Source: an uncultured Actinomycetes bacterium
Lineage (GTDB): Bacteria; Actinomycetota; Thermoleophilia; UBA2241
Length of the DNA stretch: 64,000 nt
Assembly: GCA_963709345.1 (NCBI GenBank)
Contig: CAVPVX010000006.1
Location: 32,001 to 96,000 of the forward strand
Reading direction: 5' to 3'
Made by a program: the position numbers and the translations under genes. The first letter of the stretch is position 1; the number at the start of each line of letters is the position of its first letter. Shown here piece after piece: positions 1 to 62,062 of the stretch. The notes under the pieces are model-generated. The model made no database searches. It was not told where the DNA came from and worked only from the letters and a program-made list of their open reading frames with translations.

Positions 1-150
1 CACGCCGAGCACGCTTTCCTGCTCTGCAACGGCCGCATCATCCGCAAGGGCGCGAGGAACGGTATCGACGACTTCTTCGCCGAGAAGTGCGTGTGCTGCG
101 ACCACACGAACGTGCCCACCGAAGAGGAGATCACGGCGGTGGCCGAGTGA
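1..150 (+). CDS. C-terminal end of SufC/SmsC-like ABC ATPase (partial, runs off window start)
   Basis: Frame 1 reads HAEHAFLLCNGRIIRKG...FFAEKCVCCDHTNVP...*. This is an ABC-ATPase tail with a Cys motif, and its TGA overlaps the GTG of the next SufB-like gene. Confidence 0.7.
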   Translation, partial: HAEHAFLLCNGRIIRKGARNGIDDFFAEKCVCCDHTNVPTEEEITAVAE

Positions 151-1097
151 GCGCTCCCACGCAGGCCCAGGTCGAGACCGCGCGCGAGTTGCTCGCCAGC
201 CTCGGCGACTTCGGCGGCCACATCAAGGGCGACGACATCGCTCACCTCGAGGTGCACGGCAACGAGGTCGTCGGCGCGCACCTGGTGCCCGGCCTCACAG
301 TCGACGTCGACGAACTCGACGACGGCATCGAGGCCTGGATCCACCTGGAGAAGGGTGCGCGTATCGCCAACCCGGTACACCTGTGCTTCGGCATGCTGCC
401 CACTGAGGGGATGCAGCGTATCCTGATGCACGTCGACGTGGAGGAAGACAGCTTCACCAGCGTGCAGGCGCACTGCACCTTCCCGAACGCCGTCGACATC
501 ACCCACAAGATGGACGCCGAGATCAAGATAGCGCCTGGCGCCACCTACGAGTACTTCGAGCGGCACCTGCACGGTGCCGAGGGCGGCGTGATCGTCGTGC
601 CCAAGACCAGGGTCCATGTCGGCGAAGGCGGCCGCTTCAAGACCGAGTTCGAGCTCATCAAGGGTATGGCCGGCGTCATCGACTTCGACTACGAGGTCGA
701 GTGTGACGCCTTCAGCACCCTCGACATGATCGCCCGGATCATCGGTCGCGGCAGGGACAAGATCCGCATCAACGAGGTCGGTCATCTGAACGGCGAGGGC
801 GCCAAGGCGGTTCTGCAGTCGCACCTCGCCCTCCGCGACGATGCGACCGCCGAGATCTACAGCACACTCACGGCGAGCGCGCCGCACGCCCGCGGGCACG
901 TCGACTGCAAGGAGATCGTGCAGGGCAACGCCGTCGCCAAGGCGGTGCCCGTCGTAGAGGTGAGCCATCCGCTGGCGCACGTGACGCACGAGGCCGCGAT
1001 CGGCAGCGTCGACAGCAAGCAGCTGCAGACGCTGATGAGCCGCGGCTTGGACGAAGAGGCGGCCACCGACCTCATCATCGAGGGTCTGCTGGGCTGA
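147..1097 (+). CDS. SufB/SufD-family (SmsB-like) Fe-S scaffold protein
   Basis: PVHLCFG, ARGHVDCKEIVQG and AHVTHEAAIGSVD..QLQTLMSRGLDEEAA motifs. GTG start overlaps the upstream stop (GTGA). Confidence 0.88.
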   Translation: MSAPTQAQVETARELLASLGDFGGHIKGDDIAHLEVHGNEVVGAHLVPGLTVDVDELDDGIEAWIHLEKGARIANPVHLCFGMLPTEGMQRILMHVDVEEDSFTSVQAHCTFPNAVDITHKMDAEIKIAPGATYEYFERHLHGAEGGVIVVPKTRVHVGEGGRFKTEFELIKGMAGVIDFDYEVECDAFSTLDMIARIIGRGRDKIRINEVGHLNGEGAKAVLQSHLALRDDATAEIYSTLTASAPHARGHVDCKEIVQGNAVAKAVPVVEVSHPLAHVTHEAAIGSVDSKQLQTLMSRGLDEEAATDLIIEGLLG

Positions 1098-1100
1098 GCT

Positions 1101-2345
1101 CTACCGCGTCTCGGCGGGGGTCAGAGGCTTGAGGCCCTCGGCGAACGAGATGAGCTCCTGCCGGGTGAGGGCGCCGGTGACGAAGACCGCCCGGCGCCTC
1201 GTGGTGACGAACAGCGACGGCCCGCTCTCCTGGTACCAGGTGGAGGCCGTCGCTCCCGCGAGCGCGCCGTACTGCAGCGTGACCTCTTGATAGGAGATCT
1301 TCTCGGCGCCGGCCCCGTCCTGCCAGTCCGGGACGGGGGCGAGCGCACGCAGGGTGGCCGGTCCGACCTGTTCAACCGTGAACTGCGAGAGGCCGCGGGT
1401 GTACAGCTGCAGGACGGCCGTTCCATCCGGCTTGGCCGGGAGCTTCCGCACGCCCTCGTCGATCCAGATCACGGGCCGGAGTCCGGCCGGGGCGATCGCG
1501 ACGGTTGCGAGCTCGTAGCCGTCCGGGGCCAGCTCCGAGACCAGCGGGTCGTGGCCGGCCGCGCGTCCGGCCGCCGCAGGTGACGCGTGGTAGGCCTGGC
1601 GTCTGTCTCTGGTCGTCCGGATCCTGGCCCCCGCCGGAGTCTCGACGCCGTAGGTGGCGCCGTCCGGCGGCGGCGAGTCCCAGTCCACCGTCGCCGTGAA
1701 CGTCGAGAGGCTGTCTCTGTACCAGGTCACGACGCCGCTCCGCTGGTCCACGACGAGGTCGACGGCGCCGTCGTCCAGTGTGATCGCGGCGCGCCAGACC
1801 GCACGGTCGCCGTCTCTGAGCGGCTTGATGCCGACTGCGTCGTCCCGCTCCTCGACGGCCGTGCGCACGACGGCCGCGAGACCCTGGTAGTCGAGGGGGC
1901 TGCGTGTCGCGACCCGCCAGACCGGAGGCCACGCCCCGACCCTCCGGGAGAAGGCGGCTGTGGGCCCGGCGCCGGTCGCCGTCGTCTCGGTGCGCCCGGG
2001 GGCGTCATAGCCCGAGCGCGACGGCCGGAGGCTCAGCGCTCCCGCCGCTTCGGGGAGATCGGCGCTGCCCCCGGCGTTCCCCCCGGCCACGGCGCTGAAC
2101 GTGCCGACTTCGTCTGAGAGCCCCGCTTCGGCGCCGGCGGCGGTGACCCGCAGCGTGTAGGCGCCCTGGATGCCCCGGGTCGCCGGCGCCGTCACGGATG
2201 AGCTCGAACGAAGGAAGAAGATCCAGGCGACGGTGAGCACGAGGACGAAGGCGATGACCGTCACGGCGAAGCGCGGCGGCCGACGGCTGATTCGCGCCGA
2301 CCGGATCGTCTGGCTCGCCCGCTCGCGCGGGGACAAGGCGCTCAC
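1101..2345 (-). CDS. Single-pass membrane protein with LolA/RseB-like extracytoplasmic domain; paralog of 12711..14180
   Basis: N-terminal TM (FAVTVIAFVLVLTVAWIFF), LVVDQRSG and C-terminal GALTRQELISFAEGL, matching GDLTRNELTRIADSL in the paralog. GTG overlaps the upstream stop. Confidence 0.6.
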   Translation of the reverse strand: MSALSPRERASQTIRSARISRRPPRFAVTVIAFVLVLTVAWIFFLRSSSSVTAPATRGIQGAYTLRVTAAGAEAGLSDEVGTFSAVAGGNAGGSADLPEAAGALSLRPSRSGYDAPGRTETTATGAGPTAAFSRRVGAWPPVWRVATRSPLDYQGLAAVVRTAVEERDDAVGIKPLRDGDRAVWRAAITLDDGAVDLVVDQRSGVVTWYRDSLSTFTATVDWDSPPPDGATYGVETPAGARIRTTRDRRQAYHASPAAAGRAAGHDPLVSELAPDGYELATVAIAPAGLRPVIWIDEGVRKLPAKPDGTAVLQLYTRGLSQFTVEQVGPATLRALAPVPDWQDGAGAEKISYQEVTLQYGALAGATASTWYQESGPSLFVTTRRRAVFVTGALTRQELISFAEGLKPLTPAETR

Positions 2346-3211
2346 GACTCGATGACGACGCCCCCGCCCATGGGCACGATCGCCTCGGGGAGCGCGCGAC
2401 CCAGGGCGGCGGCGGCCTTGCGGCCGGTGCAGTGACACGGGGCGAGGGTGCGTGGCGCGCGTCGCGCCAGCTCGCCGGCGACGAGCGCGACGCGCGCCGA
2501 GTCCGCGTCCATCAGGTGGGTCCCCCCGATGAGCTTGACCAACGGGCGCCCGCCGGTGAGCAGGTCGATGTGCTCGAGCGTGGCGAGGACGCCGGCGTGG
2601 GCGCAGCCGAGGATCACCCAAAGGCCCTCCGGCGTGTCGACCCAGAAGGACTGGTCGTCCGGGACCGGGTCGGGCATGGTGCAGGCCGCGTCGAAGAAGA
2701 AGTCCGGGTCGCCGGGTTCGCGGGAGTCGTCTCGGGGCACGATGCCGGTGCACCAGACGCCCGGCACGACCTCGGTGGGCTCGTCCGTCCAGACGATGCG
2801 GTCCGCTGCGGCGAGCGCCGCCTCGCGGGACGCGACCGGCATGCCGATGGGCTCGGGTCGGCTGTGCCGCCGCCGTGAGACGCGCGGCTGAAGCGCGGCG
2901 GGATGCAGGTACAACCGCGCACGCGGCGCTGCCGCGAGCGCGACCGGCAGCCCGCCGGTGTGGTCGTAGTGCCCGTGGCTGAGAGCGATCGCGTCTGCGG
3001 TCCCGAGATCGACTCCGAGCCGTGCCGCGTTGTCGGCAATGGCGCGAGTCTCGCCGGTGTCCACGAGGAGGCGCCGCCCGGCGACCTCGATCCAGAGCGA
3101 GAGGCCGTGCTCCTTGCTCAAACCCGGAACGGCGCTCTCGTTGTCCATGAGGACGGTGATTCGCGGCAGTGCGACCGTCGGCGGTCTCTCGGGAGCGCCT
3201 GCGCCGCTCAC
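2342..3211 (-). CDS. MBL-fold metallo-hydrolase
   Basis: EHGLSLWIE, LLVDTG, SHGHYDHTGG, GCAHAG, GGTHL and PCHCTG motifs. Confidence 0.88.
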   Translation of the reverse strand: MSGAGAPERPPTVALPRITVLMDNESAVPGLSKEHGLSLWIEVAGRRLLVDTGETRAIADNAARLGVDLGTADAIALSHGHYDHTGGLPVALAAAPRARLYLHPAALQPRVSRRRHSRPEPIGMPVASREAALAAADRIVWTDEPTEVVPGVWCTGIVPRDDSREPGDPDFFFDAACTMPDPVPDDQSFWVDTPEGLWVILGCAHAGVLATLEHIDLLTGGRPLVKLIGGTHLMDADSARVALVAGELARRAPRTLAPCHCTGRKAAAALGRALPEAIVPMGGGVVIES

Positions 3212-3540
3212 AGGTGCGTCCTCGCGGCAGGCGGGTGCACCCGGTCCCCGCGCAGCAGCCGGCTCACCGCGTCGGTGACTTGCGGCACCACGCGCGGGAC
3301 CCAGACCAGCAGCCAAATGAGCAGGAGGGCAAGGATGACGGTCAGCGATCCGACGACGGCAAGGATGTTTCGCACCCAGAGCGTGTAGCAGATGAGGGCC
3401 GAGACGCCGAGGACCGTGACGAGCTGGCTCGAGACGGGAAGGCGTTCGTAGGCCACCCAGATCAGCCACACCCCGAGCACGATGAGCGCGCCGGTCACGG
3501 CGTAGGCGAGCAGCCACGTGGCGACGACGGGGAGCATCAT
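3208..3540 (-). CDS. Small multi-pass membrane protein, probably leaderless
   Basis: Three hydrophobic segments. TACAAT lies 6 nt upstream of the ATG. Confidence 0.6.
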   Translation of the reverse strand: MMLPVVATWLLAYAVTGALIVLGVWLIWVAYERLPVSSQLVTVLGVSALICYTLWVRNILAVVGSLTVILALLLIWLLVWVPRVVPQVTDAVSRLLRGDRVHPPAARTHL

Positions 3541-3666
3541 GGGCCGATTGTACCGCTCCCCGGCGGCGCGAGTGCTCAACTACCCCGTCTGAGCGGCTGG
3601 CGCGAACCCGTGACCGTGTGATTACGTAGCGCTGCCCGTTCCATGAGCGGACCGAGGAGGCAGGGC

Positions 3667-5136
3667 GTGAAGCGTAATCTGTTCGCCGGCCGCCGCCGCA
3701 GCGGCGGCCTCAAACTCGACGTCTTCACGGACGACGAGGTCCAGGATATCCACCTCGCGACCCTTGAGGTCCTGGAGCGCACCGGCGTGTGGGTCGAGAT
3801 CGACGAAGCGCTGGACATCTTCGCCGACGGCGGCTGTGTCGTCGAACGCGAGAGCCGTATCGTGCGCATCCCGCCACATCTGGTCGAGGACGCGATCCGC
3901 AGCGCGCCTGCCAGCATCACCCTCTGCGGCCGCGACCCGAAGAACGACATCGTGATCGAGGCTGGTCGCGTCGGCTTCAGCAACTTCGGCGAAGGTGTGC
4001 TCGTGATCGACCCTGACGACGGCGAGCTGCGCGCCTCCACGAAGCAGGACCTCGCCGACATCGCCCGGCTCTGCGACGCGCTTCCGTCGGTCGATGTGTT
4101 TGAGATCGCCGTCGGCGCCGGCGACATGCCCCCGCAGACGGCGTCGCTGCACAATCACGAGGCCGCGATCGTCAATCAGACGAAGCCGATCTCCGGAGGG
4201 CCGCTCGACGGTCGTGCCGTCAAGGCCAGCCTGCGGATGCTCGAGGCCGTGCAGGGCAGCCCGGAGGCCGTGCGCGAGCGGCCGATGATGATCATGGGCA
4301 CTTGCCCCGTCAGCCCGCTCAAGCTGGTCAAGGACTGCTGCGAGATCATCATCGAGGCGGCGCGCGCCGGTGTGCCCAGCTGCGTACTCAGCATGGCGAT
4401 GGCCGGCGGGTCCAGCCCGGTGACACTCGCGGGAACGCTGGTCACGCACAACGCCGAGGTGCTCGCCGGCGTCGTCCTCTCACAGCTCACCGAGCGCGGC
4501 GCCAAGGTGCTGTACGGTAGCTCGACGACCGCCATGGACCTGCGGCTCGCGGCCGCGTCGGTCGGCTCGCCGGAGCTCGCCCTGATCAGCGCCGGCGCGG
4601 CCCAGATCGCCAGGCAGTACCGCCTGCCGAGCTATATCGCCGGTGCGTAGGGCGACAGCAAGCTCGGTGACGCCCAGTCCGGTCACGAGAAGACCCTCAC
4701 GGCCTTGATGGCAGCGTTGGCAGGGACCAACCTGATCTACGGCCTGGGAATGATCGAGTCGGGCGTCACCTTCGACTACGCGCAGCTCGTCATGGACGAC
4801 GAGATCGCGCGCATGGTCAAGCACGTGGTCGGCGGTATCCGCGTCGACGACGAGGCGCTGGCCGTCGACGACATCCACGCTGTGGGAGCCTTCGGTGACT
4901 TCCTCAGCCTCGACGCGACGATGCGGCACATGCGCGAGGCGTCGCAACCGGAGCTGATCGATCGCCGCGTGCGCGAGGACTGGGAGGCGCGCGGCAGCAG
5001 CGACCTCTACCAGCGGTCGCTGCTCAAGGCGCGCCACATCCTCGAGACGCACCATCCGGAGCCGCTGCCCGACGACGTGCGGCGGCGCATACGTCAGATC
5101 GTGGACGACGCCGACGGGGATCTCGCCGGGGCGTGA
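3667..5136 (+). CDS. mttB: Trimethylamine:corrinoid methyltransferase, pyrrolysine-containing (in-frame TAG at 4648-4650)
   Basis: MttB motifs (IHLATLEVLERTG, SPVTLAGTLVTHNAEVLAG, GSPELAL), then YIAGA-TAG-GDSKLGDAQSGHEKT continuing in frame to TGA 5136. GAGGAGG RBS precedes GTG 3667. Confidence 0.92.
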
Positions 5137-5206
5137 CCGCGCCGGCGAGTCCGGGTGCCCGAGCCGGCCGGCGCGCGGATGTGGGACAACGCGCCGGCCC
5201 TCGGGG

Positions 5207-5893
5207 TCAGCGCGACGCGGCCAGGATGCGGGCGACGCCGCTTGGGCCCAAGGGCGGGTCGCTCCATCCGGTCGTCAGCTTGACCTTGAGCGTGTAGCTG
5301 CCGTCGCTCGGAGTGTACGAGAAGTCGCCCAGCCCGGTACCGGCGACCATCGGGGAGCCGGTCCACGGGTTCTTGGGCCACGCGTAGCCGGCGCCGAAGG
5401 CCTCCGGCGTCATGTCGGCGGCGGGGTAGCCGCCCGCGTGCGCCGCCGCGTACGCTTCCACGTAGCGCTGCAGCAGGAGCAGGTTCTGCTTCGCCGCCGT
5501 GTCACGCTCGCTCTTGAACCAGCGCGGCATGCCCCCGGTGAGCTTGTAGCTGCCCTTGGACAGGTGCATGACGAGCTTGTAGCTGGTGCCGCCGGCCCCG
5601 AGAGTGTACGTGAACGTTCCTCTCGACTTCCCCGCCGCCATGACTTTGCCCGTCCAGGGGTTGGCGGGCCAGATCGGCGTGGTGAGCCCGCCGCCCTTCT
5701 TGACCATCTTCGCCGGGGGGTACTTGAAGTGCCGCGCCTGGCCGTACTGGTTGATGTAGTTCTGCAGGAGGAGCCCGCTGGCCTGGACCTGTCGGTCGAC
5801 GAAGCCCAGGGCAGCGGCCCGGCCCGGCATCAGGGCGCCGGCGAGCAGCAGCACGGCGAGCGAGAGTAAGAGGATGGTGATACGTCTTGGCAC
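5207..5893 (-). CDS. Secreted protein with two WPxNPWTG pilin-head-like domains
   Basis: AGGAGG RBS, GTG start, Sec signal ending AAA, and repeats WPANPWTG and WPKNPWTG. Confidence 0.75.
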   Translation of the reverse strand: MPRRITILLLSLAVLLLAGALMPGRAAALGFVDRQVQASGLLLQNYINQYGQARHFKYPPAKMVKKGGGLTTPIWPANPWTGKVMAAGKSRGTFTYTLGAGGTSYKLVMHLSKGSYKLTGGMPRWFKSERDTAAKQNLLLLQRYVEAYAAAHAGGYPAADMTPEAFGAGYAWPKNPWTGSPMVAGTGLGDFSYTPSDGSYTLKVKLTTGWSDPPLGPSGVARILAASR

Positions 5894-5913
5894 GAGATAG
5901 CCTCCTGTGACGG

Positions 5914-6933
5914 TCACGGCTCCGAGGGGCTCGACTCGGCAGCCGGGGCCGGCGCGGTGCCGCCGGCCTCGAAGTCCCCCGAGTGCAGGTGGACGGTGAG
6001 CGTGAAGGCGCCGGCGGCGCCGGGAGCGTAGGTGTAGGCCCCCGGCGCTGTGCCCTGCCCAATCGCGCTGCCGGTGAGTGGATCCTGCGGCCAGTCGGGG
6101 TGCGCGGCGCCGACTGCGCCTCCGGCGGCGAGGTCGGCCACCTGCGGCAGCTCGCCGCCGTGCTGCAGGGACCACTGGCCGACGTAGCCGGAGAGGATGC
6201 GTGCGCTGCGCCGGAGGATCTCGTCCTCCAGGCTGGCGAGGAGGCGCAGCCACGGGTTCGTGGCGGCGGCGCCTCTCTGCACGTAGTCGCTCTTGAGGGC
6301 GCGGTGGAGGCGCAGGGTGTAGGCCGAACGGTCGGCGGTCACGCCGTACGAGAACGAACCGTGGTCTGAGCGCTGCTGCATGTCGGCGTGGTCCCACGGG
6401 TTGCTCGGCCAGTAGCCGCAGCCCGGCTGCTTGCCTACGGCGCCGTCGCCGGCCACGTCAGCGCTCGCCGGATAGCGCCCGCCGTGGGCGCGGGCGTACT
6501 GCTCGATGTAGTGGCGAATGAGGTTGAGGCCCTCCTCGCCGCGGTGGTCGTAGGCGAGCTTCATGGAGTGTGGCATGCCCCCGCGAACGGTGACGACCCC
6601 GCCATCCAGATACCCTGTCAGTCGGTATCGCCGTCTATTGGTCGTGACCGTGTACGTGTAGTGACCGCGGCCGCTCCCCGGTGTGAGTCGAGCTCCCGTC
6701 CACGGATCGCGTGGCCACCACGTCGAGTCGAGGCCTCCCGGCCGGACCATGGCGCGCGAGGGAAACTGGAAGTACTTGGCCGCTCCGGCGCGGTCGATGA
6801 GACCTCGCAGGGCCATGATGCTCTCGCGCATCTCCGTGTTCGACGACGCGGCCTGCACCGGCGCTGCGCCGGCGGTGAGCAGGCACGCGGCGACCGCGGC
6901 GATGGCAGCGATGGCGCAGGCGTGTCGAACCAT
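5914..6933 (-). CDS. Secreted protein with three WPx(N/D)P pilin-head-like domains
   Basis: Signal peptide ending VQA; repeats WPRDPWTG, WPSNPWDH and WPQDPLTG. Confidence 0.75.
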   Translation of the reverse strand: MVRHACAIAAIAAVAACLLTAGAAPVQAASSNTEMRESIMALRGLIDRAGAAKYFQFPSRAMVRPGGLDSTWWPRDPWTGARLTPGSGRGHYTYTVTTNRRRYRLTGYLDGGVVTVRGGMPHSMKLAYDHRGEEGLNLIRHYIEQYARAHGGRYPASADVAGDGAVGKQPGCGYWPSNPWDHADMQQRSDHGSFSYGVTADRSAYTLRLHRALKSDYVQRGAAATNPWLRLLASLEDEILRRSARILSGYVGQWSLQHGGELPQVADLAAGGAVGAAHPDWPQDPLTGSAIGQGTAPGAYTYAPGAAGAFTLTVHLHSGDFEAGGTAPAPAAESSPSEP

Positions 6934-7079
6934 GGTGGGTCGTCTCCCTTCGCGCTAAGTGTGGCCACCGGGCGGGGGCCGGTCAAGCCGCGAGCCGTCG
7001 GGCGCGCTGCTCACCCGCCTGATACGATTCGGCACGAGCGCCGCGGGGCCTGCGGCCGGCGCGCGATCTCGATTCGGAG

Positions 7080-8483
7080 GTGATGCCGGTGGATGCAGGG
7101 AACGCGAAGATCCCGACGCGCATGGGCGACGGCTTCATGGTCGAGATGACCTGCGCCGAGCTGCGCGCCGACCTCGAGGAGGCAACGCAGGAGGCGGCGC
7201 GCAAGGCCAAGGCGCCGCCGCTCTCCCAGGACGAACTCGACCATCTCCTCGACATCTATGCCTCGCGGGCGGCGTTCACCGCCGTCGACATCGGCGACCA
7301 GGTGGTCCTCAGCTGCGACGGCGGCGGTAGCAAGCTGACCGGCACCGACCTGCTCGACCTGCTCGAGAGCGAGCAGCGCCTCGGCCAGGACATCCTTGAG
7401 CTCTGGCACATCGAGTACAGCTACAAGGCGATCAAGACCATCCTGCCGTTCCAGCAGCAGGTGATGCAGAACGTCCAGCTCATGTGCACGGCCCCGGTGC
7501 AGTACGGGGCGCAGCCGAACCTCGCCTTCTACAGCAAGCCCGACGGTCCGGCCGGCAACTTCTTCGAGATGTTGCCGCGCGGGGACATCGCCGGGGCGCG
7601 CGCCGCTATGGAAGAGGCCATGGAGCACGCCACCAAGGACTTCATCTATGTGGGCGAGGGCATGCTCGACGCCGGCGCTGACGGCATGGACTTCGACACC
7701 ACCGGCGGCGCCGGCGACGCCGACTTCTTCAGCACGCTGCGCGCCGTGAAGCACCTGCGCGAGAGGTACCCCGACGCCGGTATCGAGGTCGGCATGGCCG
7801 GCGAGTTCGTGATCGGCGTGCACGGCGAGCTCGAGTGGGATGGCAGGCGACTCGCCGGCCTCTGGCCGAGGGAGCAGCTCGAGCTTTGCCAGGACGCCGG
7901 CGTCACCATCTTCGGGCCGGCGGTCAACATCCGCACGGGCAGGAGCTGCGCCTGGAACGCCGCGTACTCGATCACCGCGATGAAGCCCTGCATGGATGTC
8001 GCGCGTATCCCGGTCCACCCGAACGTGGGGCAGGGGGTCTGCGGTGTGCCCGTCAACGGCTACCCGGGCGAGGACGCCTCGTCGCGGGCGGCCAAGGCAC
8101 ACGTCGATCTGCTGCGCTGCGACGGGTTGTAGGTGGGCTCGGGTGACTCCAGAGGCATGGACGTCACCCACGCGCTCGCCGCGGGCATGGGCGGGATGCG
8201 CACGGCCGGAGACCTGGTCGCGCGCATGCAGATGGCCCGCGGGATGCGCCTCGAGCCGGCGAAGCGGTACGTCGCCGGCAAGCTGGGCTGCACGGTCCGC
8301 GACCTCAGCGACAGCTGCGCGATGGAGCAGATCCGCGGCGAGAGGGGTCTGGGGAGGATCCTCGACCACTCGAACCTGCACCCCGGCGAGCCCAACGCGA
8401 TGATGGCCAAGTTCCGGATCGCCGAGCTGCTGGGTGTGCCGATCAGCTCGGTGGAGCGGTTCCGGGAGCTGGCAGGGATCTGA
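7080..8483 (+). CDS. mtbB: Dimethylamine:corrinoid methyltransferase, pyrrolysine-containing (in-frame TAG at 8130-8132)
   Basis: MtbB motifs (TRMGDG, YSYKAIK, FDTTGGAGDADF, GMAGEFVIGVHG, IPVHPNVGQGVCGVP), then CDGL-TAG-VGSGDSRGMDVTHALAAGMGGMRTAGDLVARMQ in frame to TGA 8483. The start may be GTG 7089. Confidence 0.92.
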
Positions 8484-8602
8484 CGGCGTCTTGAGGAGCG
8501 CTGCAGTCTTCGCCGGATGCTGCCGATGGAGATGGCAGGCAGCGCTCGCGTGGTCGCAAGGGCTGCGGATCGCTGCCGGGTCCATGGACGGGAGGCAAGA
8601 AG

Positions 8603-8986
8603 ATGAAGCGTTGTACGAGCATCGCCCTCGTCGCCGTCCTGATGCTCCTCGCCGCCGGGGTCTTCGCCGGCTGCGGGTGTCAGGAAGCGGTTGAGGACGA
8701 GACCACCGGCCAGATCGACCAGGCCAAGGACGCCGCCGCCAAGGTCCAGCTGATGATGATCAAGACGGGGATCCAGGCCTTCATCGCCTCGAGCGGTCAG
8801 GCGCCGGCCGACGCCTCGGAGGCCACGCTCGGCGGCTTCGTCAGCCCGTGGCCCGTCAATCCCTGGACGCAGGCGCCGATGAAGGCCGGTGACGGCGTGG
8901 GCGACTACGTCTACACGCCGGGCGCCGGCGCGGAGTTCACGCTCGCCGTGCACCTTTCGGACGGCTCGACTGCTACGGCGCCGTGA
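8603..8986 (+). CDS. Lipoprotein with one WPVNPWT pilin-head-like domain
   Basis: Lipobox FAG-C; WPVNPWTQAPMKAGDGVGDYVYTPG...FTLAVHLSDG. Confidence 0.78.
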   Translation: MKRCTSIALVAVLMLLAAGVFAGCGCQEAVEDETTGQIDQAKDAAAKVQLMMIKTGIQAFIASSGQAPADASEATLGGFVSPWPVNPWTQAPMKAGDGVGDYVYTPGAGAEFTLAVHLSDGSTATAP

Positions 8987-9011
8987 CGTCGGGACCGGGT
9001 GCCGGGCGTGT

Positions 9012-9039
9012 GCCGGCCGGCGCGACGGCGCCGGCCGGC
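9012..9039 (+). terminator. GC-rich hairpin, probable terminator
   Basis: GCCGGCCGGCGC-GACG-GCGCCGGCCGGC forms a perfect 12-bp stem just after the lipoprotein stop. No U-tract. Confidence 0.45.
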
Positions 9040-9105
9040 CCGTGGCCCCGTGCTTGAGGGCGGCAGAGGCGCTTGATACCCTAGGTCTCGGTGGGGGGAG
9101 ACGCG

Positions 9106-10258: not shown

Positions 10259-11635
10259 TCAGGCGCCGATCAGTCTCTTGACGTAGCCGGCGCGCTTGCT
10301 CGGCCTCCCCGTGCGCGCCTCCACGGCGTCGGCGCTGTCCATCGCCGCGAGAGCGGCGTTGACCCCGAGCCAGCGCAGCGGTTCCGGCTCCCACGGCTTC
10401 GAGCGGTGGCCGACCCAGGGCAGCCGTGTCAACTCCGTCTCGTGTTCGAGGATGAGGTCGCGCAGCGTGCGCGCCGCAAGATTGGTGGTCGAGACGCCGT
10501 CGCCGACATACGCGCCCGCCCAGGCCATGCCGCTCGGGCGGTCCAGGCCGACGGAGCTGTACCAGTCTCGCGACGCGGCGATCGCGCCGCCCCAGTGGTG
10601 CGTCACCCGGGCGTCGCCGATGGTGGGGAACAGCTCGCCGAGAAGGCGCCGGAGGTGGTCCTGCACCTTCGTCACGCGCTCGTAGCGCTCGCTCAGCCGC
10701 GAGCCGAAATGGTACGGTGCGCCACGGCCGCCGATGGCGATGCGACCATCGTCGGTGTGCATCGCGTAGAAGATGAGGAAGCGGAAGTCGCCGAACACCT
10801 CGTGGTCGCTCCATCCGACCTCGTCCCAGAAGGAGTCCGGGAGCGGTTCGGTGCCGATCATCAAGGAGTAGATCGGCACCACGGCGCGCTCGTAGCCGGG
10901 CAACTCTGGTGTGAACGCTTCGGTGGCGCGCACGACGACGTCGGCGCGGACGTCGCCGGACGCGGTCGCGGCGAGGTGGGGTTCGATGCGCGTCACCGGG
11001 GTGCGCTCGTAGATCGGCACCCCGAGGCGCTCCACCACGTCGGCCAGGCCGCGCGCGAGGCGGGCCGGGTCGACGGCGGCGCCATGCGGCGTGTAGACGG
11101 CGCCGAGGCACCCGGCCACTCTGATGCGCTCCCGCATCTCGGCGGCGCCGAGCATGGCGTAGTCGTCCTCCCCGAATCCCCAGCTGCGCTCGTAGTCGAG
11201 AGCATCCCGGGCGCGCAGCAGTTGGACGGGGGTCGTGGCCAGGTCCAGCTGCCCGCCGATGTGGAAGCGCGCGTCGATCGCCTCGTCGGCCACGACGCGC
11301 GCTATCTCGGTCACCGTCGCGTGCAGTGCGCGCTGCTGATCGACGACAGCTTGGCGACCGTGCGTCTTGGCGGCTGCTTCGCGAGACCCGGGGAACGTCG
11401 TGTGGCACCAGCCGCCGTTGCGCCCGGACGCGCCGAATCCGGCGATCTCGCGCTCGAGTACCGCGACGCGCAGGTGGGGATCGGCCTTCTTGAGGTAGTA
11501 GGCGGTCCAGAGGCCGGTGAATCCGCCGCCGACGACCGCGACGTCCACGGCGAGCGGCCCGGGCAGTGAGGGACGCGGCGTCAGCACGCCGGGCACACCG
11601 TCGAGCCACATGCTGCGGGCGCGGTAGTCGGTCAT
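10259..11635 (-). CDS. FAD-dependent amine/amino-acid oxidoreductase (PuuB/DadA family)
   Basis: VVGGGFTGL, GFGASGRNGG and C-terminal WEPEPLRWLG. Confidence 0.88.
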   Translation of the reverse strand: MTDYRARSMWLDGVPGVLTPRPSLPGPLAVDVAVVGGGFTGLWTAYYLKKADPHLRVAVLEREIAGFGASGRNGGWCHTTFPGSREAAAKTHGRQAVVDQQRALHATVTEIARVVADEAIDARFHIGGQLDLATTPVQLLRARDALDYERSWGFGEDDYAMLGAAEMRERIRVAGCLGAVYTPHGAAVDPARLARGLADVVERLGVPIYERTPVTRIEPHLAATASGDVRADVVVRATEAFTPELPGYERAVVPIYSLMIGTEPLPDSFWDEVGWSDHEVFGDFRFLIFYAMHTDDGRIAIGGRGAPYHFGSRLSERYERVTKVQDHLRRLLGELFPTIGDARVTHHWGGAIAASRDWYSSVGLDRPSGMAWAGAYVGDGVSTTNLAARTLRDLILEHETELTRLPWVGHRSKPWEPEPLRWLGVNAALAAMDSADAVEARTGRPSKRAGYVKRLIGA

Positions 11636-11772
11636 GTCAAGCTCCTTTGAGGTGAAGGCGTCCTGCACGGCTCGTGGCGAGCGTGGCGTCTCGTGAGAGG
11701 AAGGGATGGGCAGGAGGGACGTACTCGCGACGGCAGGCGACGGGCGAGCGGCTGGTCACGCGGGCCGTCCCA

Positions 11773-14961: not shown

Positions 14962-15957
14962 TCACGGCACGGTGTAGGTCAGGCCGTTGCTCAGGTAGCC
15001 GGTCAGCTTGTAGCTCTGCCCCCCGTTCAGCTGCTCGTACACATACCCACCCGGGGATGTGCCCGGCGCCATGGGCTGGCTCGTGAACGGGTTCACCGGC
15101 CAGGGATCGACGTACTGCGCGACGCCACCGCCGCTCACGACGTCCTGCGCCGCCGGGTACAGGTTGTTGTTGTTCGTCGCCCAGGTGACGATGCCGATCT
15201 GCAGCTTGGCGATGCCGTCGATCACCTGCTGGTCCGCCGACGGCGAGACGCTTGGACTGGGGCTCGCGGTCTGCGTCGGCGTGAGCGTGGGCGTCGGGCT
15301 GGGCGACGGCGTGGGAGAGGGCGACGGGCTGGTCGGCAGGAGCACGTCGGCGCGCACGAAGACGACGGGGTCCGTCTTGAGGTCTCCCGAGGTGAAGCGA
15401 AGCGAGAGCCGGTCGCTTGCGGTCTCGTGCGTGAGCGTCGCCGCCACCTTCCCGGTCGCGCCCTGGATGTCGAGGGCGGCGGCGTCGACGGTCGTCTCGA
15501 GCTTTCCGTCGACGAGGTCGGCGACCGCGGACCCGGCCGGCTTGAGTTGGTCGTCGAACTGCTTGATCCGGAACTGGTCGTTGCCGGTGCGGGTGATGAC
15601 GAGCCCTCCGCCGGTCATCGCCGCGGGTGACCAGGTGCCGATGAACTCGTCTCCGGTGGCCGAGTCGGTGGGCCGCAGGTAGAAGAACCAGACGGCGGCC
15701 ACGGCGATCACGGCGATCAGGGCGACGATGACCCACACCCACCAGGGCATGCCCGATCCGGAACTCTGCGGCCGGCTCATCATGAGGGTCGGTTGCATCG
15801 GCGGCGGCGGAGGCTTCGCGCCGCCCGCCGCCGGCATCACGCGGGTGGCGTCCGTGCTGTCGCCGCTCAGTACCTGTGTCGCGCCCTCGTCTGCGGGGGG
15901 CACCACCCGGGTCACGTCGGTGTCGTCGGGCAGTCTGCCCGTTGTCTCATCGTCCAT
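14962..15957 (-). CDS. Membrane-anchored protein: beta-rich domain, PS/PT linker, C-terminal WPVNPFT pilin-head-like domain
   Basis: Cytoplasmic DxT-repeat N-terminus, TM, GDEFIGTWSP domain, TPSPSPTPT linker, YPAAQDV...WPVNPFTSQPMAPG. Confidence 0.75.
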   Translation of the reverse strand: MDDETTGRLPDDTDVTRVVPPADEGATQVLSGDSTDATRVMPAAGGAKPPPPPMQPTLMMSRPQSSGSGMPWWVWVIVALIAVIAVAAVWFFYLRPTDSATGDEFIGTWSPAAMTGGGLVITRTGNDQFRIKQFDDQLKPAGSAVADLVDGKLETTVDAAALDIQGATGKVAATLTHETASDRLSLRFTSGDLKTDPVVFVRADVLLPTSPSPSPTPSPSPTPTLTPTQTASPSPSVSPSADQQVIDGIAKLQIGIVTWATNNNNLYPAAQDVVSGGGVAQYVDPWPVNPFTSQPMAPGTSPGGYVYEQLNGGQSYKLTGYLSNGLTYTVP

Positions 15958-41978: not shown

Positions 41979-43490
41979 TCAGCCGGCGCGCTCGGCGATG
42001 CTCGCGCTCACGGCGCGCAGCATGCCGGCCGCCTTGTGCAGCGTCTCGCGGTACTCGCGCACCGGCACCGAGTCGGCGACGATACCGCCGCCGGCCTGCA
42101 AGAAGAGGCGGTCACCCTTGCGCACGAGCGTGCGAATGATGATGTTCAGATCGAGCTGCCGTTCGGCGATCCAGCCGAAGGACCCGGTGTAGGGGCCGCG
42201 GCGGACGGTCTCGAGCTCGTCGACGATCTCCATGCAGCGGACCTTGGGGCAGCCGGTGATGGTGCCGCCGGGGAACATCGCCTTGACGAGACCGACGGCG
42301 TCGTGCGAGGGGTGCAGGCGGCCGCGCACATTGCTGACGATGTGGATCACGTGCGAGTAGAACTCGTTGACCATGAGCTCGTTGACGCGCACGGTGCCGT
42401 ACTCGCACACCTTGCCGAGGTCGTTGCGCTCGAGGTCGACGAGCATGATGTGCTCGGCGCGGTCCTTGGGGTCGAGGTTGAGCTCGTCGGTGAGGTGTTC
42501 GTCTTCCGGCTGGAGGGCGCCTCGCGGCCGCGTACCGGCGATCGGCCGGGTCTCGGCCCAGCCCTCCGCGTCGAGCGAGACCAGGCGCTCGGGCGACGAG
42601 CTGATCAGCTCGTAGTCGCCGAAGTGGAGGTACCCGGCGAAGGGCGACGGGTTGACGGCGCGCAGCGTGCCGTAGAGGTGCAGGCTCGGGAGCGAGTAGC
42701 AGAGGTCGAGGCGCTGCGAGAGGTTGGCCTGGAAGATGTCGCCGGCGAAGACGTACTCCCGGGTCCGGGCGACAACGGCTTCGTACTCGGCTCTGGTGAA
42801 GTTGCTGCGGAACACGGGGAGGTCGTTGCCGTGGAGCACGGCGGCGGAGGCGTGGCGCGCGCGCTCGAGGGCTGCGCCCACGCGCGCGCCTTGTGCCGCC
42901 GCCGCGTCGCCGTCCGCGGCGATGCGGTCGACGAGCAGGGCCTCCCCGGTCGCCAGGTCGTACCGCAGCAGGCGCCCGGGGAGGAACACGTCGATATCGG
43001 GTATGCTGAGGTCGTCGCGCACCGTGTCCGGCAGCCGCTCGAGGTAGCGCACGGCGTCGTACGAGAGCAGGCCGACGAGCGCCTCGGCTTCGGGCAGGCT
43101 CGTGATCTCACCTTCATCGCCGCCCACATCGCTGCGGCTCACCTGCTCGCCGTTGCGGTCCGTGAACGGCCGTGCGGCCAGCCGCGTCGCGGCACGCAGC
43201 GCCTCGAACGGCGCCAGACGGGCGAGCCCGCCCGCCCGCGCCGCCAGCTCACGCGCCGAACGCCCGCCCGCCCGCGAGACGGAAGATCCGGGTGTGACGG
43301 CGACGACGTCGCGTCGCGCGCGTAGCCGGAAGACCGGATCCCATGCCAGGTAGTGCCGGCGGGCCAGCTGCGCCGATCCGCCCGCCGAATCCAGCAGGAC
43401 GACCGGCGCCTCGCCCTCGAGACCGAGAGCCCGCACGAGCGCGACCGGATCGAGGTCCTGTGCCTGGAAGCGGGTGACGTGAGGGTTCAT
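41979..43490 (-). CDS. pabB: Aminodeoxychorismate synthase component I / TrpE-family chorismate-binding protein
   Basis: GDIFQANLS, SSSPER, AEHIMLVDLERNDLG and FPGGTITGCPK. Confidence 0.82.
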   Translation of the reverse strand: MNPHVTRFQAQDLDPVALVRALGLEGEAPVVLLDSAGGSAQLARRHYLAWDPVFRLRARRDVVAVTPGSSVSRAGGRSARELAARAGGLARLAPFEALRAATRLAARPFTDRNGEQVSRSDVGGDEGEITSLPEAEALVGLLSYDAVRYLERLPDTVRDDLSIPDIDVFLPGRLLRYDLATGEALLVDRIAADGDAAAAQGARVGAALERARHASAAVLHGNDLPVFRSNFTRAEYEAVVARTREYVFAGDIFQANLSQRLDLCYSLPSLHLYGTLRAVNPSPFAGYLHFGDYELISSSPERLVSLDAEGWAETRPIAGTRPRGALQPEDEHLTDELNLDPKDRAEHIMLVDLERNDLGKVCEYGTVRVNELMVNEFYSHVIHIVSNVRGRLHPSHDAVGLVKAMFPGGTITGCPKVRCMEIVDELETVRRGPYTGSFGWIAERQLDLNIIIRTLVRKGDRLFLQAGGGIVADSVPVREYRETLHKAAGMLRAVSASIAERAG

Positions 43491-44962: not shown

Positions 44963-45464
44963 GGCTCTCCCGGGCGGTTGGCGGTGCTGGGGTCTCGGAG
45001 TCTACGCGACCCAACGGGGTGATGGTAGCGCAACGCGGGGACGGCGCGTCGCCGCCGCAGTGCAGGGGTCGAGCCCACGTGAAGCTGGATCGCTCGGCAG
45101 GCCCTGAGCCTCAAGCGCCACTGCTCAGCCGCGCCGCGGTTCTCCTTCCCTGCGTGCACGTCGAGGGCGATCCGCACCCGATGGGCGCGGTCTCTCGCCG
45201 ACTCCATATTCGTCTCCTGCGAACCTGGCGGTACGGTCTTGCGCAGAAATCGGCAGCTGCAGTCAGCCGATTCTCTCCACTGCAGAAATGCAGTTGGGCG
45301 GACAAGCCCGACAGCGAAGGCATGACGAGCTTCAGGTATCCCTCAATGCACTACGAGCTGTGGAACGCAGGGCGCACAGTGGCGTTCTTCGCTTCACCGA
45401 CCGAGTGGCCATCTCGACGTACGCTGTACCAGCGGAATCACACCGCAACTCCGGCCCAGTCAGG

Positions 45465-46227
45465 CTAAGGTCGACTCCCGCCAGGCTTCCGGAACAGATA
45501 CATGGCCCAGCCAAGGCAGTCCCGTCCCCATCGCAGGTAGGCGTCTCGATTCTTGCTCGAGATCTGCAACAGTTGCTCCACGTCTGGGTCGTCGGGATGA
45601 GCTGCCGCATAGCGTTCGGCTGCTTGCCACTGGAGCCCCTCGTACCGGTCCCAGTCGTCCTCACTGGACACCACCGTGTACAGGAACGAAAGGCCCAGGT
45701 CCACACCGGCCTGGACGTTACTCCTGTGAGTTCCGCATAGATCGGCATCTTGACCGGTCAGCCTCAGGTAGTCCGGATCCGGTTCCGTTCTCCAGAAGGG
45801 TTCGCCGACGAGCACCAGTCCCCCCGGCTGTACCATTCTGACTGAGCGCCTCCAGTGTCCCCGTGTGCCCCTTGTAGACCCACGATCCGCCAATGCACGA
45901 GGCCAGGTCCAACATCTCCTTTCGGTCGGGCTCGTACTCGCCACCGTCCATGTGGAGGAGTTCGATGCGCCCGTTCAGGCCGCGGGCCGCCACGTTCTTC
46001 CGCGCCTCCTCGATGGTGATGGGTGACAGGTCGAGGCCCGTGCCCGCCACTTCGTACTGCTCCGCTACGAGACAAAGGAACTCCGCTTTCCCACACGCCA
46101 CATCCAGGACGCGACCGCCGTCAGGAAGGCGGAGAAGCTCGATGAGCTCCTCAGTCTTGGTCAGACTCATCGGGTTCATGACCGTGTGGTCGGTGTGCGT
46201 GATGCCAAAGTACTTCCACATGTCCAT
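45465..46227 (-). pseudogene. SAM-dependent methyltransferase (YjhP-like) with frameshift near 45845; lower GC
   Basis: VLDVACGKAE and CIGGSW in one frame; PGGLVLVGEPFW...WDRYEG...LGWAMY in another. Confidence 0.75.
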
Positions 46228-46439
46228 CTCGATGGTCGCTTCCTTTCCTCGTGACCAGGCAGGCCAGCGCGGAGTCAGACTACACGATGACTGCGGAGAT
46301 TCTCGATGTATCGCTCCATCCCTACCCCTCTGCGATCAGGCTCATCGCCGTACCTGAGAACCAGAGACTGACCAGATGCCGGGGGATGCTGGAGAATGGA
46401 AACTCCAGAGTTTGGCCGCAACCCGGCCTCCAATCAGCC

Positions 46440-46537
46440 GCCCACTATGCGCATCCAGCGGACTTCGGCGCCAGCCAGGTAGACTGAAGCAGGGAAGCAT
46501 CGCTGCGCCTCGCAGCTGATGCGCAACAACGTTAGGC
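46440..46537 (+). mobile_element. Degenerate integron attC site 1
   Basis: R''-like GCCCACT; L'' GCATCCAGC pairs with L' GCTGATGC leaving one extra base; ends with canonical GTTAGGC. Confidence 0.6.
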
Positions 46538-46577
46538 GTCGCAGAACCACCGTCTCATTCGACCCGAGAGGAATGCC

Positions 46578-46988
46578 ATGAACACAGCTCCGAGTCGACC
46601 CAAAGACGATCCCTGGAAGCTCAAGACGCCGCCTGGGACCTCCGAGTACACGATGCACACGGACGAGAAGGACGGGAAGAAGATCCTGGTCTGCACCGTC
46701 GGCAGCACAGTGCTGCACTACGACCTGCGCTGCATCGACGACCTGCACGCGATGCTCAAGAAGGGAGGAGACTGGGTCGAGCTCGGTGGTGCCGACGAGC
46801 AGAAGCCGGCCAAGGAAGGAACAGTGGAGGCCTGGGGCCGCTCAGAAGCCAACCCAATCGGTGGCTGGTACGGTCTGAAGAAGGGATTGCGCGGGCGCTT
46901 TGGCGTCTACGTACCACCGCTCATGGAAGAACTTGGCCTCTGCGAGTTGGAGCACAACGCCAGGAACAATCGTATGCGCGCCAAGTGA
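46578..46988 (+). CDS. Conserved hypothetical protein (DUF6855-like) carried as a gene cassette
   Basis: GAGAGG RBS; DDPWKLKTPPGTSEY...GGWYGLKKGLRGRFG. Family name is recalled, not searched. Confidence 0.75.
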   Translation: MNTAPSRPKDDPWKLKTPPGTSEYTMHTDEKDGKKILVCTVGSTVLHYDLRCIDDLHAMLKKGGDWVELGGADEQKPAKEGTVEAWGRSEANPIGGWYGLKKGLRGRFGVYVPPLMEELGLCELEHNARNNRMRAK

Positions 46989-46998
46989 GCGAAGCGAC

Positions 46999-47127
46999 GC
47001 TTACCCCCTGGCTCAAGCGGAGCGCCAACGGCGGGCCACCAGGCCCGGTCTGGCGTTGCGCGGTACATTATCGCCGACTCGGGCTTGGCATCCTGCCGTC
47101 GTCGCCCGCTCAGCTCGAACGTTGGAC
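46999..47127 (+). mobile_element. Degenerate long (129 bp) integron attC site 2
   Basis: GCTTACC...GCTCAAGCGG...CCGCTCAGCTCGAAC-GTTGGAC imperfect palindrome. It begins 10 nt after the cassette stop and resembles proteobacterial ~130-bp attC sites. Confidence 0.75.
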
Positions 47128-57828: not shown

Positions 57829-57858
57829 TTGCGCCGACGCTAAGGATTTCCTTACAAT
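57829..57858 (+). promoter_or_regulatory. Sigma70-type promoter for the riboswitch operon
   Basis: TTGCGC-18 nt-TACAAT, ending 7 nt before the riboswitch P1. Confidence 0.65.
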
Positions 57859-57865
57859 GGCGGAG

Positions 57866-57966
57866 CTTCTCCGAGCGCCGGCTTCCTAAGGGCCTTGGCC
57901 TATGGAGCCGGATGCCGGCAGGGTACAGCGGGAAACCGCCGTGTCTCCCAGTGCGGAAAGGAGAAG
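57866..57966 (+). ncRNA. Moco RNA motif riboswitch lacking P3 (Tuco/Wco type)
   Basis: P1 CTTCTCC/GGAGAAG; CCGAG; P2 with CCTAAG...TATGG receptor; CAGGGT...GGAAAC tetraloop...CTCCC; GGAAAGGAG. Upstream of wtpAB. Confidence 0.85.
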
Positions 57967-58137
57967 GCGACCTTCGGGCCTTTCCGCGTGCGGTGGGCTC
58001 TTCTCTTCGCCCCCGTCCGCGGCGCCGTGTGCACATGGCGGGCCCTCGCCGTCTTCCGCCTCGCCGCTCTCGGACGCACGGCCTCTCGCCCCCTCGCCTC
58101 GGGGCAGCGGCAAGGGAACCTGGGGAGGAGTGAGAGC

Positions 58138-60966: not shown

Positions 60967-60997
60967 GCCCGCGACACATGGCTGAAGGAGGCCGACG

Positions 60998-62062
60998 ATG
61001 AGCTCGAGCGGTATCGGCGGCGGGCCGCGCCGGGCGGAGCGCGCCGCCCGCGCCCGGCGCTCGAGGCGGCTGGCGCTGGCCGTGGCGGTCCTGGCCTTGG
61101 CGCTGGTCGCGCTGGTCGCCGCCTGCGGCGACTCGAGCGACCAGTCGCCGCCGTCCCCCGGTCCTTCCGGGCCCGTCGTCCTGACCGTCCGGGGCGAGGA
61201 CGGGACGGAGACGTTCACGATGAACCAGCTGCGGGCGCTGCCGGCCTACGAGGGTTACGCCGGCAGCAAGAGCAGCACCGGCGTGATCACCCCGCCCGCA
61301 GTGTTCAAGGGCGTGCCGATCGTGGAGCTCGCCGACCTCGTCGGCGGTATCAGCCGGTCCAACGGCGTGACGATGCTCGCCAAGGACGGCTACGGCATGA
61401 CGTTCTCGTATCGTCAGATCATGGAGAGTGGATTCACGACCTACGACCCGGCGACCGGGGAGGAGGAGCCGGCCGACGGCCGGCTCACGGTCATTCTCGC
61501 CTACGAGCGTGACGGCGGACCCATCGGCGAAGACGATGGACCACTGAGGCTCGCCGTCGCCCAGGATGAACCGGCCCAGGTGACCGACGGCCACTGGGCG
61601 ATCAAGTGGCTCGATACGGTGTCGGTGACCGAGGCGTCGGCGCAGTGGAAGGTGCAACTCGAGGGCGCGGTGCCCGGCAAGCTGGACCGCGCCGCCTACG
61701 TCAACTGCGCTTCACCCGGATGCCACGGCTCCGGCTGGGTCGACGCCGACGGCGCACGCTGGGAGGGCATCCCGCTCTATCTCGTCTGCGGTCTCGTCGA
61801 CGACGCGAAGAAGCATGACGAGGGGGCCTACGCCGCGGCTCTGGCGGAGAGAGGATACGACATCATCATCGAGACGGTCTCCGGCGAGGTCGTGACCATT
61901 GATTCTCGAGACATCGCCGGCCGGAACAGCGTCGTCCTCTCGGCGAAGGTCGACGGGGGAGAGTTGCCGGACGAGCACTTTCCCCTGCGGCTCGTCGGTC
62001 CGGGTCTGAGCGATGGTCAGATGCCGGGCGGGATCGCGCGCATCGTCGTGCGCGTGAAATAG
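60998..62062 (+). CDS. Lipoprotein paralog with two Oxidored_molyb-like domains and CxxxxCH motif
   Basis: Lipobox VAA-C; FTMNQLRALP, FKGVPI, AKDGYGMTF, GPLRLA, IKWL and CASPGCHG. Confidence 0.75.
   Translation: MSSSGIGGGPRRAERAARARRSRRLALAVAVLALALVALVAACGDSSDQSPPSPGPSGPVVLTVRGEDGTETFTMNQLRALPAYEGYAGSKSSTGVITPPAVFKGVPIVELADLVGGISRSNGVTMLAKDGYGMTFSYRQIMESGFTTYDPATGEEEPADGRLTVILAYERDGGPIGEDDGPLRLAVAQDEPAQVTDGHWAIKWLDTVSVTEASAQWKVQLEGAVPGKLDRAAYVNCASPGCHGSGWVDADGARWEGIPLYLVCGLVDDAKKHDEGAYAAALAERGYDIIIETVSGEVVTIDSRDIAGRNSVVLSAKVDGGELPDEHFPLRLVGPGLSDGQMPGGIARIVVRVK

Follow-up and report, generated by a model that had tools for sequence, protein, structure and literature searches.

Two methyltransferase genes with an in-frame UAG at the pyrrolysine position in an uncultured Thermoleophilia bacterium

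Does a UAG codon in the middle of a methyltransferase gene terminate the protein, or is it translated? The question is raised by mttB, a trimethylamine:corrinoid methyltransferase gene located at 3667..5136 (+) in a 64,000-nt stretch of contig CAVPVX010000006.1 (assembly GCA_963709345.1), which is referred to as a whole as the window. What is known of pyrrolysine (Pyl) use comes mostly from methanogenic archaea and from a small number of bacteria. The sequence-only reading of this DNA had proposed that the UAG of mttB encodes pyrrolysine in a probably actinobacterial genome; it reported mttB only, and mtbB, a second gene of this kind located less than 5 kb away, was absent from it. The results presented here make it very likely that the window belongs to an uncultured member of Thermoleophilia, a class of Actinomycetota, in which mttB and mtbB are both functional and each contains one UAG that is translated as pyrrolysine.

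The UAG codons of mttB and mtbB

The mttB gene has a GTG start, a TGA stop and 489 codons, including one UAG. When positions 3667-5136 were translated in one frame, we obtained 327 residues, the TAG at 4648..4650, another 161 codons and the TGA at 5134-5136, and this TAG was the single internal stop, with neither a frameshift nor a second stop in the frame. The list of open reading frames (ORFs) made with the standard code breaks the gene into 3643..4650 and 4705..5136. The split at the TAG and the continuation over 161 codons, both described in the sequence-only reading, are thus seen directly in the DNA and in its one-frame translation, and the peptides GDSKLGDAQSGHEKT and AGTNLIYGLGMIESG were found in the read-through product. 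Translation probably starts at GTG 3667, as relatives open with MKRN... and the sequence GAGGAGG is located 8 nt upstream of this codon.

The Pfam family MTTB matched the DNA on both sides of the TAG, first at 3622-4647 (profile positions 30-336 of 500, E 4.6e-61) and then at 4651-5133 (341-493 of 500, E 1.6e-31). Since the profile positions continue from one piece to the next, a single domain spans the TAG. The read-through protein scored 707.6 bits against the Pyl-type equivalog NCBIfam TIGR02369 (trimeth_pyl), the cutoff of which is 525 bits, and covered profile positions 2-469 of 469. Its best matches among solved structures were 7xcm_A and 7xcl_A (E ~1e-123, query residues 2-486), so that the alignment of the read-through product to Pyl-containing MttB, which the sequence-only reading had suggested as a check, gave a full-length match. 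In this alignment residue 328, encoded by the TAG, stands opposite the 'X' (pyrrolysine) of 7xcl_A in the motif ...YVAGSXSDAKVPDDQAGHEKT..., and together with the TIGR02369 score this bears out the placement of the TAG at the Pyl position. The non-Pyl glycine betaine enzyme MtgB (2qne), which matched the window MttB with an E value of 8e-71, has Leu in the same column. A sense codon in this column is the hallmark of the non-Pyl, MtgB-like part of the MttB superfamily; the window gene has TAG there. On every sequence-level criterion, the window mttB is classed as a Pyl-type MttB gene.

The second gene, mtbB, is a member of the dimethylamine:corrinoid methyltransferase family located at 7080..8483 (+). 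It comprises about 467 codons, one of which is an in-frame UAG at 8130..8132 (+); its start is uncertain and could be GTG 7080, ATG 7083 or a later ATG. The Pfam family Dimeth_Pyl (PF09505) matched 7023-8129 with profile positions 4-353 of 463 (E 4.1e-107) and 8133-8480 with positions 355-462 (E 2e-34). The two matches leave out only profile position 354, which means that the TAG of mtbB occupies the lone position that Pfam skips for pyrrolysine. The score of the read-through MtbB against NCBIfam TIGR02368 (dimeth_PyL) was marginal, 371.1 bits with a cutoff of 369.1. Judged by these profiles, the window mtbB is a Pyl-type family member, yet a divergent one. Two distinct Pyl enzymes at most 5 kb apart, each broken exactly at its Pyl codon, cannot be a coincidence.

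The RNA following the two UAG codons was also analysed. At mttB, the Rfam family PYLIS_3 (RF02510, mttB) matched 4648..4747 (+) with 64.8 bits (gathering score 38), beginning exactly at the TAG. The few base pairs of the model are mostly non-canonical in the window sequence, and the fold of the RNA downstream of this UAG had a z-score of only -0.30, as 75 of the 200 shuffled sequences folded equally well or better. The PYLIS_3 match thus probably reflects conserved coding sequence rather than structure. At mtbB, PYLIS_2 (RF02509, mtbB) matched 8130..8229 (+) with 60.5 bits (gathering score 36); here the z-score of the downstream RNA was -3.13 and none of 200 shuffles was as stable. The 3' helix of PYLIS_2 corresponds to a conserved hairpin at 8194..8229 (+), 65-100 nt after the UAG. 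When 89 homologues (78 distinct rows) were aligned without gaps, 95% of the cells of this hairpin were paired, compared with 37-47% in slid controls and with only 67% in the 5' helix of PYLIS_2. Changes on both sides were detected in four pairs, 72-93 (GC 35, CG 26), 75-90 (CG 33, GC 25), 78-87 and 69-96, all of them at third codon positions, although these counts overstate the number of independent events because the 89 homologues are kin. This substitution pattern indicates that the 3' hairpin of mtbB is maintained by compensatory changes.

Relatives, codon conservation and selection

A scan of a genome collection with mttB yielded 67 related loci, the organism names of which are those of the record titles. 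Nearly all of them were titled 'uncultured Thermoleophilia bacterium'; a few carried the names Actinomycetota or Actinomycetes, one was titled Deltaproteobacteria and one Desulfobacter. The closest locus, L001, could be aligned with positions 52-7319 of the window in a single piece with 90.3% DNA identity over 7.3 kb. The suggestion of a probably actinobacterial host is thereby made more precise, as the closest loci come from Thermoleophilia metagenome-assembled genomes (MAGs). Approximately 15 Thermoleophilia loci were syntenic with the window from position 1 to about 17,400 (sufBD to aroA, encoding EPSP synthase) at 76-80% identity. This shared synteny implies that mttB and mtbB occupy a conserved chromosomal neighbourhood of the lineage and are not a recent insert. 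The G+C content of the window is 69.5%, and its core genes include purA, purB, purC, purD, dnaB, rplI, rpsR, ssb and rpsF. One syntenic locus, L030, whose mttB shares 80% identity with that of the window, is titled Deltaproteobacteria bacterium MAG248; its bin may be mislabelled, or the contig may be misplaced.

The TAG was found to be highly conserved at the Pyl column. It was present in 68 of the 72 MttB-family genes, from 66 loci, in which the N-terminal match reached this column. The other four, which are paralogues with 32-34% identity, have TCG (three genes) or AAC (one gene). After the TAG, the C-terminal match continued contiguously in the same frame in 67 of the 68 genes; the other gene extends beyond the end of its locus. 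All 88 MtbB-family homologues (46 loci) had TAG at the corresponding column, and each of the 76 full-length ones contained exactly one TAG. In the protein database, relatives of MttB with 65-91% identity are nearly all exactly 327 aa long because gene callers cut them at the identical codon, and relatives of MtbB appear as fragments of 336-346 aa ending at the corresponding place.

To compare the two parts of each gene, the ratio of nonsynonymous to synonymous substitution rates (dN/dS, omega) was calculated by the Nei-Gojobori method between the window gene and its orthologues. The median values were 0.26 upstream and 0.31 downstream of the TAG for mttB (n=29), and 0.153 and 0.155, respectively, for mtbB (n=20). 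Moreover, omega downstream of the TAG was 0.13 between the window and the 96%-identical L001. Similar purifying selection on either side of the TAG implies that the part behind the stop codon is kept as protein in the same frame.

The relatives also revealed the extent of these families. MtbB forms at least six subfamilies in Thermoleophilia, with 21, 17, 14, 10, 9 and 3 members and two singletons, and the mutual identity between them is 55-68%; the window mtbB belongs to one of these. The residues right after Pyl vary according to the subfamily (VGSGDSRGMD, VGVGDPLGMA, VGTGDPLGME, IGAGDNHSQG, VGSGDIFGMP). Pyl-MttB falls into two subfamilies, A and B, which are 65% identical to one another. 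Within the fetched stretches of 45 assemblies, the window-type mttB (subfamily A) was found in 30, subfamily B in 20 and both in 12. In loci L031-L064 there are methylamine islands (e.g., L036:3120-21450 and L040) with up to five Pyl-mtbB paralogues of different subfamilies, accompanied by a Pyl-mttB and its corrinoid gene, by non-Pyl MttB-family paralogues of about 30% identity and by genes for a TetR regulator and an ABC transporter. The scale of these paralogue families seems to be undescribed in the literature that we searched. A tentative and rather doubtful extension would be that Thermoleophilia, a widespread uncultured lineage, are a major, barely described Pyl-decoding group, with up to five Pyl-MtbB subfamilies per 21-kb island and with UAG still an ordinary stop codon, in which some MtbB proteins might serve amines beyond dimethylamine.

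Not all close relatives of the window MttB carry a stop codon at this position. Eleven full-length database proteins with 50-62% identity to it (P0005, P0011, P0016, P0025, P0026, P0045, P0052, P0067, P0069, P0075 and P0084) have a sense residue at column 328, namely Leu in seven, Trp in three and Val in one. These proteins and the UAG-containing genes formed one ingroup (SH-like approximate likelihood ratio test, SH-aLRT, 99), within which both states were interleaved, in a quickly searched tree that had SH-aLRT support only, comprised 55 of about 126 sequences, contained several long branches and was built without archaeal MttB. The tree was rooted on non-Pyl families of about 30% identity. 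The codons TTG (Leu), TGG (Trp) and TCG (Ser) are each one base away from TAG, the residues of the relatives being known from proteins. The interleaving may reflect an exchange of Pyl and sense codons, in one direction or the other.

UAG as a stop codon, the decoding machinery and rival explanations

The stop codons of 41 Pfam-supported genes of the window are TGA in 33, TAG in six and TAA in two cases. The genes ending in TAG include dnaB and the superoxide dismutase gene, and their stop is located where the family profile ends. Read-through of the six would add between 6 and 371 codons. For example, the molybdopterin-oxidoreductase-like gene at 60986-62059 (+) ends with TAG 62060-62062, and the next gene, which encodes a solute-binding protein, follows in frame up to 63175, so that translation of this UAG would join two unrelated proteins. 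No family match running across a TAG was detected in the other window ORFs examined. As TAG still ends six of the 41 genes, UAG is generally a stop codon in this genome, and the decoding of Pyl is site-specific or conditional rather than genome-wide.

Several observations weigh against the translation of the two codons as pyrrolysine. TAG is in regular use as a terminator. ARAGORN detected no tRNA with the anticodon CUA in the window or the 67 loci, and the Rfam search at the gathering threshold returned no tRNA in the window. Four short PylS motifs, a search that requires their exact conservation, were absent from the six-frame translations of the window and the loci. The window has 320 ORFs of at least 110 aa, and in the 120 of these that were scanned with Pfam (G+C content at third codon positions above 0.75) there were neither aminoacyl-tRNA-synthetase-like, radical-SAM, ATP-grasp or PylD-like families nor a B12-binding protein. 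Since none of pylT, pylS and pylBCD was found in the window, the Pyl machinery of its genome is inferred. In addition, MtbB exceeds the equivalog cutoff by 2 bits only, so its substrate may be other than dimethylamine. A further ARAGORN hit at 43189-43281 (-), a 'tRNA-???' whose anticodon has four bases, is located inside the gene of a chorismate-binding enzyme and is probably false.

The surroundings of mttB in the related loci were similarly devoid of such genes. ORFs were clustered by single linkage, which lumped some families together, and representatives of 44 of the 52 clusters present in at least four loci were scanned with Pfam, eight all-TAG-containing clusters being left out; the 44 contained no pyl-like or B12 families. 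The absence of any pyl gene within 10 kb of mttB in the 67 loci implies that the pyl genes are unlinked to mttB in this lineage. The corrinoid protein is probably encoded apart from the window mttB as well. A corrinoid gene (mttC) adjoining mttB is typical of the MttB family but not defining, and tblastn with the corrinoid protein of L036 gave no match in the window. L036 belongs to the same assembly as L015, which is syntenic with the window. Its methylamine island contains five Pyl-mtbB genes, of which two are cut or fragmentary, and a Pyl-mttB of subfamily B directly followed by the gene of a B12-binding protein; two non-Pyl MttB-family genes, a TetR regulator and an ABC transporter are located there as well. 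This corrinoid gene came to light when L036 was scanned in full and not among the cluster representatives. Homologues of this corrinoid protein were found in 22 loci, nearly always just downstream of the fetched mttB. In L031, L035, L039, L040, L042, L043 and L058 the corrinoid match after mttB comes in two or three separate pieces; the frameshifts that this suggests may stem from indels in the assembly rather than from biology.

How, then, should the two UAG codons be understood? If mttB were a pseudogene with a nonsense mutation, the similarity downstream would be a mere undecayed remnant, and the standard code does split the gene in this way. However, the position of the stop is exactly that of Pyl in a solved structure, a second gene is interrupted in the same way, the TAG is common to 68 and 88 homologues from independent assemblies, and the frame is free of frameshifts and further stops, with downstream omega values (0.31 and 0.155) that leave this explanation with hardly any probability. 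An error of sequencing or assembly, for which nothing specific speaks, is just as hard to credit, given that the same codon recurs in dozens of independent assemblies and underlies many truncated database proteins. Taken together, the constraint downstream and the conservation of the TAG rule out both a pseudogene and a sequencing error. At the other extreme, TAG might have been reassigned to pyrrolysine throughout the genome, like in the archaeal genetic code with TAG as pyrrolysine described by Kivenson et al. 2025, as cited in PMC13695967. TAG as a sense codon in two genes within 5 kb would fit such a code; the six of 41 Pfam-supported genes that end in TAG where their profile ends, the fusion of two proteins by read-through of one of them and the lack of any other window ORF match crossing a TAG make it very improbable.

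A more serious alternative is that the genes are intact in the lineage, but this particular genome has lost the Pyl machinery or never had it, in which case UAG would terminate translation or allow near-cognate read-through at a low level, yielding an inactive or altered enzyme. The lack of pyl genes and tRNA-Pyl in the 64-kb window and within 10 kb of mttB in 67 loci, as well as the free use of TAG as a terminator, speak for this view. Nevertheless, known Pyl users do not require linkage of the pyl genes to each of their methyltransferase genes, and this counts against a lack of the machinery. Purifying selection downstream of the TAG was measured in comparisons with this genome itself, including that with L001 (omega 0.13), and the TAG has been retained in two separate genes. 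Moreover, the supplement of PMC9630628 lists a PylSc from a Thermoleophilia MAG. We consider it unlikely that the machinery is missing.

Translation of both UAG codons as pyrrolysine remains the explanation that we favour. Pyrrolysine would serve as the catalytic residue and present the methylamine to the cob(I)amide corrinoid protein, and the codon would be read by tRNA-Pyl(CUA) with the help of PylS and PylBCD, presumably encoded elsewhere in the genome. The methyl group would be accepted by a corrinoid protein from a second locus, in related MAGs the methylamine island. As UAG stays a stop codon at most genes, the insertion of Pyl would have to compete with release factor 1 and, like that in other bacteria with Pyl, is probably conditional.

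Other features of the window and comparison with known systems

Three predicted secreted proteins or lipoproteins without a family match are encoded at 5914-6933 (-), 8603-8986 (+) and 14962-15957 (-), and share the repeat motif (P)WPxNPW/F...G.Y.Y...L. The first gene is located between mttB and mtbB; the second lies just downstream of mtbB and has homologues in 23 of the fetched sources, including the window. Near both Pyl genes, 10259-11668 (-) encodes an FAD oxidoreductase of the DAO family, with 'putative aminophosphonate oxidoreductase' as its best NCBIfam match (229.8 bits, cutoff 632.8); it clustered with ORFs from 25 fetched sources, but the cluster was mixed. The NCBIfam search of 15 flanking or unassigned ORFs identified an MBL-fold hydrolase, a DAO-family oxidase, a quinone oxidoreductase and a CCG-domain Fe-S protein, none of them tied to methylamines. 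Scans of 3400-9100 with promoter and terminator consensus sequences found 0 sites each, an outcome that carries no information. Further downstream, an islet with a lower G+C content (59-64%, compared with 69.5% overall) adjoins dnaB at 45100-47000 and contains an S-adenosylmethionine-dependent-methyltransferase-like frame, split between two ORFs on the minus strand (45465-45944 and 45718-46227), as well as a DUF6855 gene at 46578-46988. A molybdenum-cofactor riboswitch (60.6 bits) was detected at 57857-57979 (+), at the 5' end of an open frame without a family (57844-59814), which is followed up to 63998 by two molybdopterin-oxidoreductase-like genes and ModA/ModB-like transporter genes.

In the sequence-only reading, pyrrolysine was called unusual outside methanogens and a few bacteria. 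Its rarity stands, but Actinobacteria were already in print: PMC9630628 reports PylRS genes in 'two Actinobacteria', its supplement containing the PylSc entries 'Thermoleophilia_bacterium' and 'Actinobacteria_bacterium_ADurb.BinA094', and according to PMC10805028, some Actinobacteriota MAGs in a permafrost mire expressed Pyl-encoding mttB and mtbB. These MAGs resemble the window in their phylum, in the pair of genes and in the recognition of the genes by truncation at the amber codon. In contrast to our analysis, the passages on these MAGs and on the PylSc deal with neither locus structure, paralogue families, selection nor stop codon usage, and pylS and pylB do not appear in the main text of PMC10805028. 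A full-text literature search for pyrrolysine and Thermoleophilia returned nothing on the topic, and searches for pyrrolysine, pylS or pylT in combination with Actinobacteriota or Actinomycetota gave nothing more specific; in PMC10654671 and PMC8382752 pyrrolysine occurs in the reference lists only. Pyrrolysine in Actinobacteria is rare yet already published, and the window is another case.

Each well-supported bacterial Pyl lineage broadens the view of how a stop codon with a dual meaning is tolerated, and also of the organisms with which methanogens have to share tri- and dimethylamine in soils, wetlands and sediments as competitors. Because gene callers split Pyl genes and the databases contain many fragments of 327 aa and 344 aa, this capacity is under-annotated. 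The radiation of paralogues in related genomes provides candidates for new Pyl-dependent activities.

Compared with the MttB of 7xcl, 7xcm and 7xcn, which we take to come from Methanosarcina barkeri, the window MttB can be aligned over its full length, and both the AG-O-xDxK..D.QxGHEKT motif and the LAGTLVTHNAEVL block are conserved. Unlike the textbook mttB, that of the window is located in a high-GC actinobacterium among housekeeping genes, it has no adjacent mttC, and no unusual RNA structure follows its UAG. Similarly to the known MtbB (PF09505, TIGR02368, PYLIS_2), the window MtbB has its UAG at the empty profile position and has kept the 3' hairpin of PYLIS_2. However, its score is just 2 bits above the equivalog cutoff, and it belongs to one of the at least six Thermoleophilia subfamilies with 55-68% mutual identity, so that its substrate could differ. 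With the non-Pyl glycine betaine methyltransferases (2qne, 9yce) the window MttB shares the fold family PF06253; these enzymes are far more distant, and where they have a sense codon (Leu in 2qne), the window mttB has UAG.

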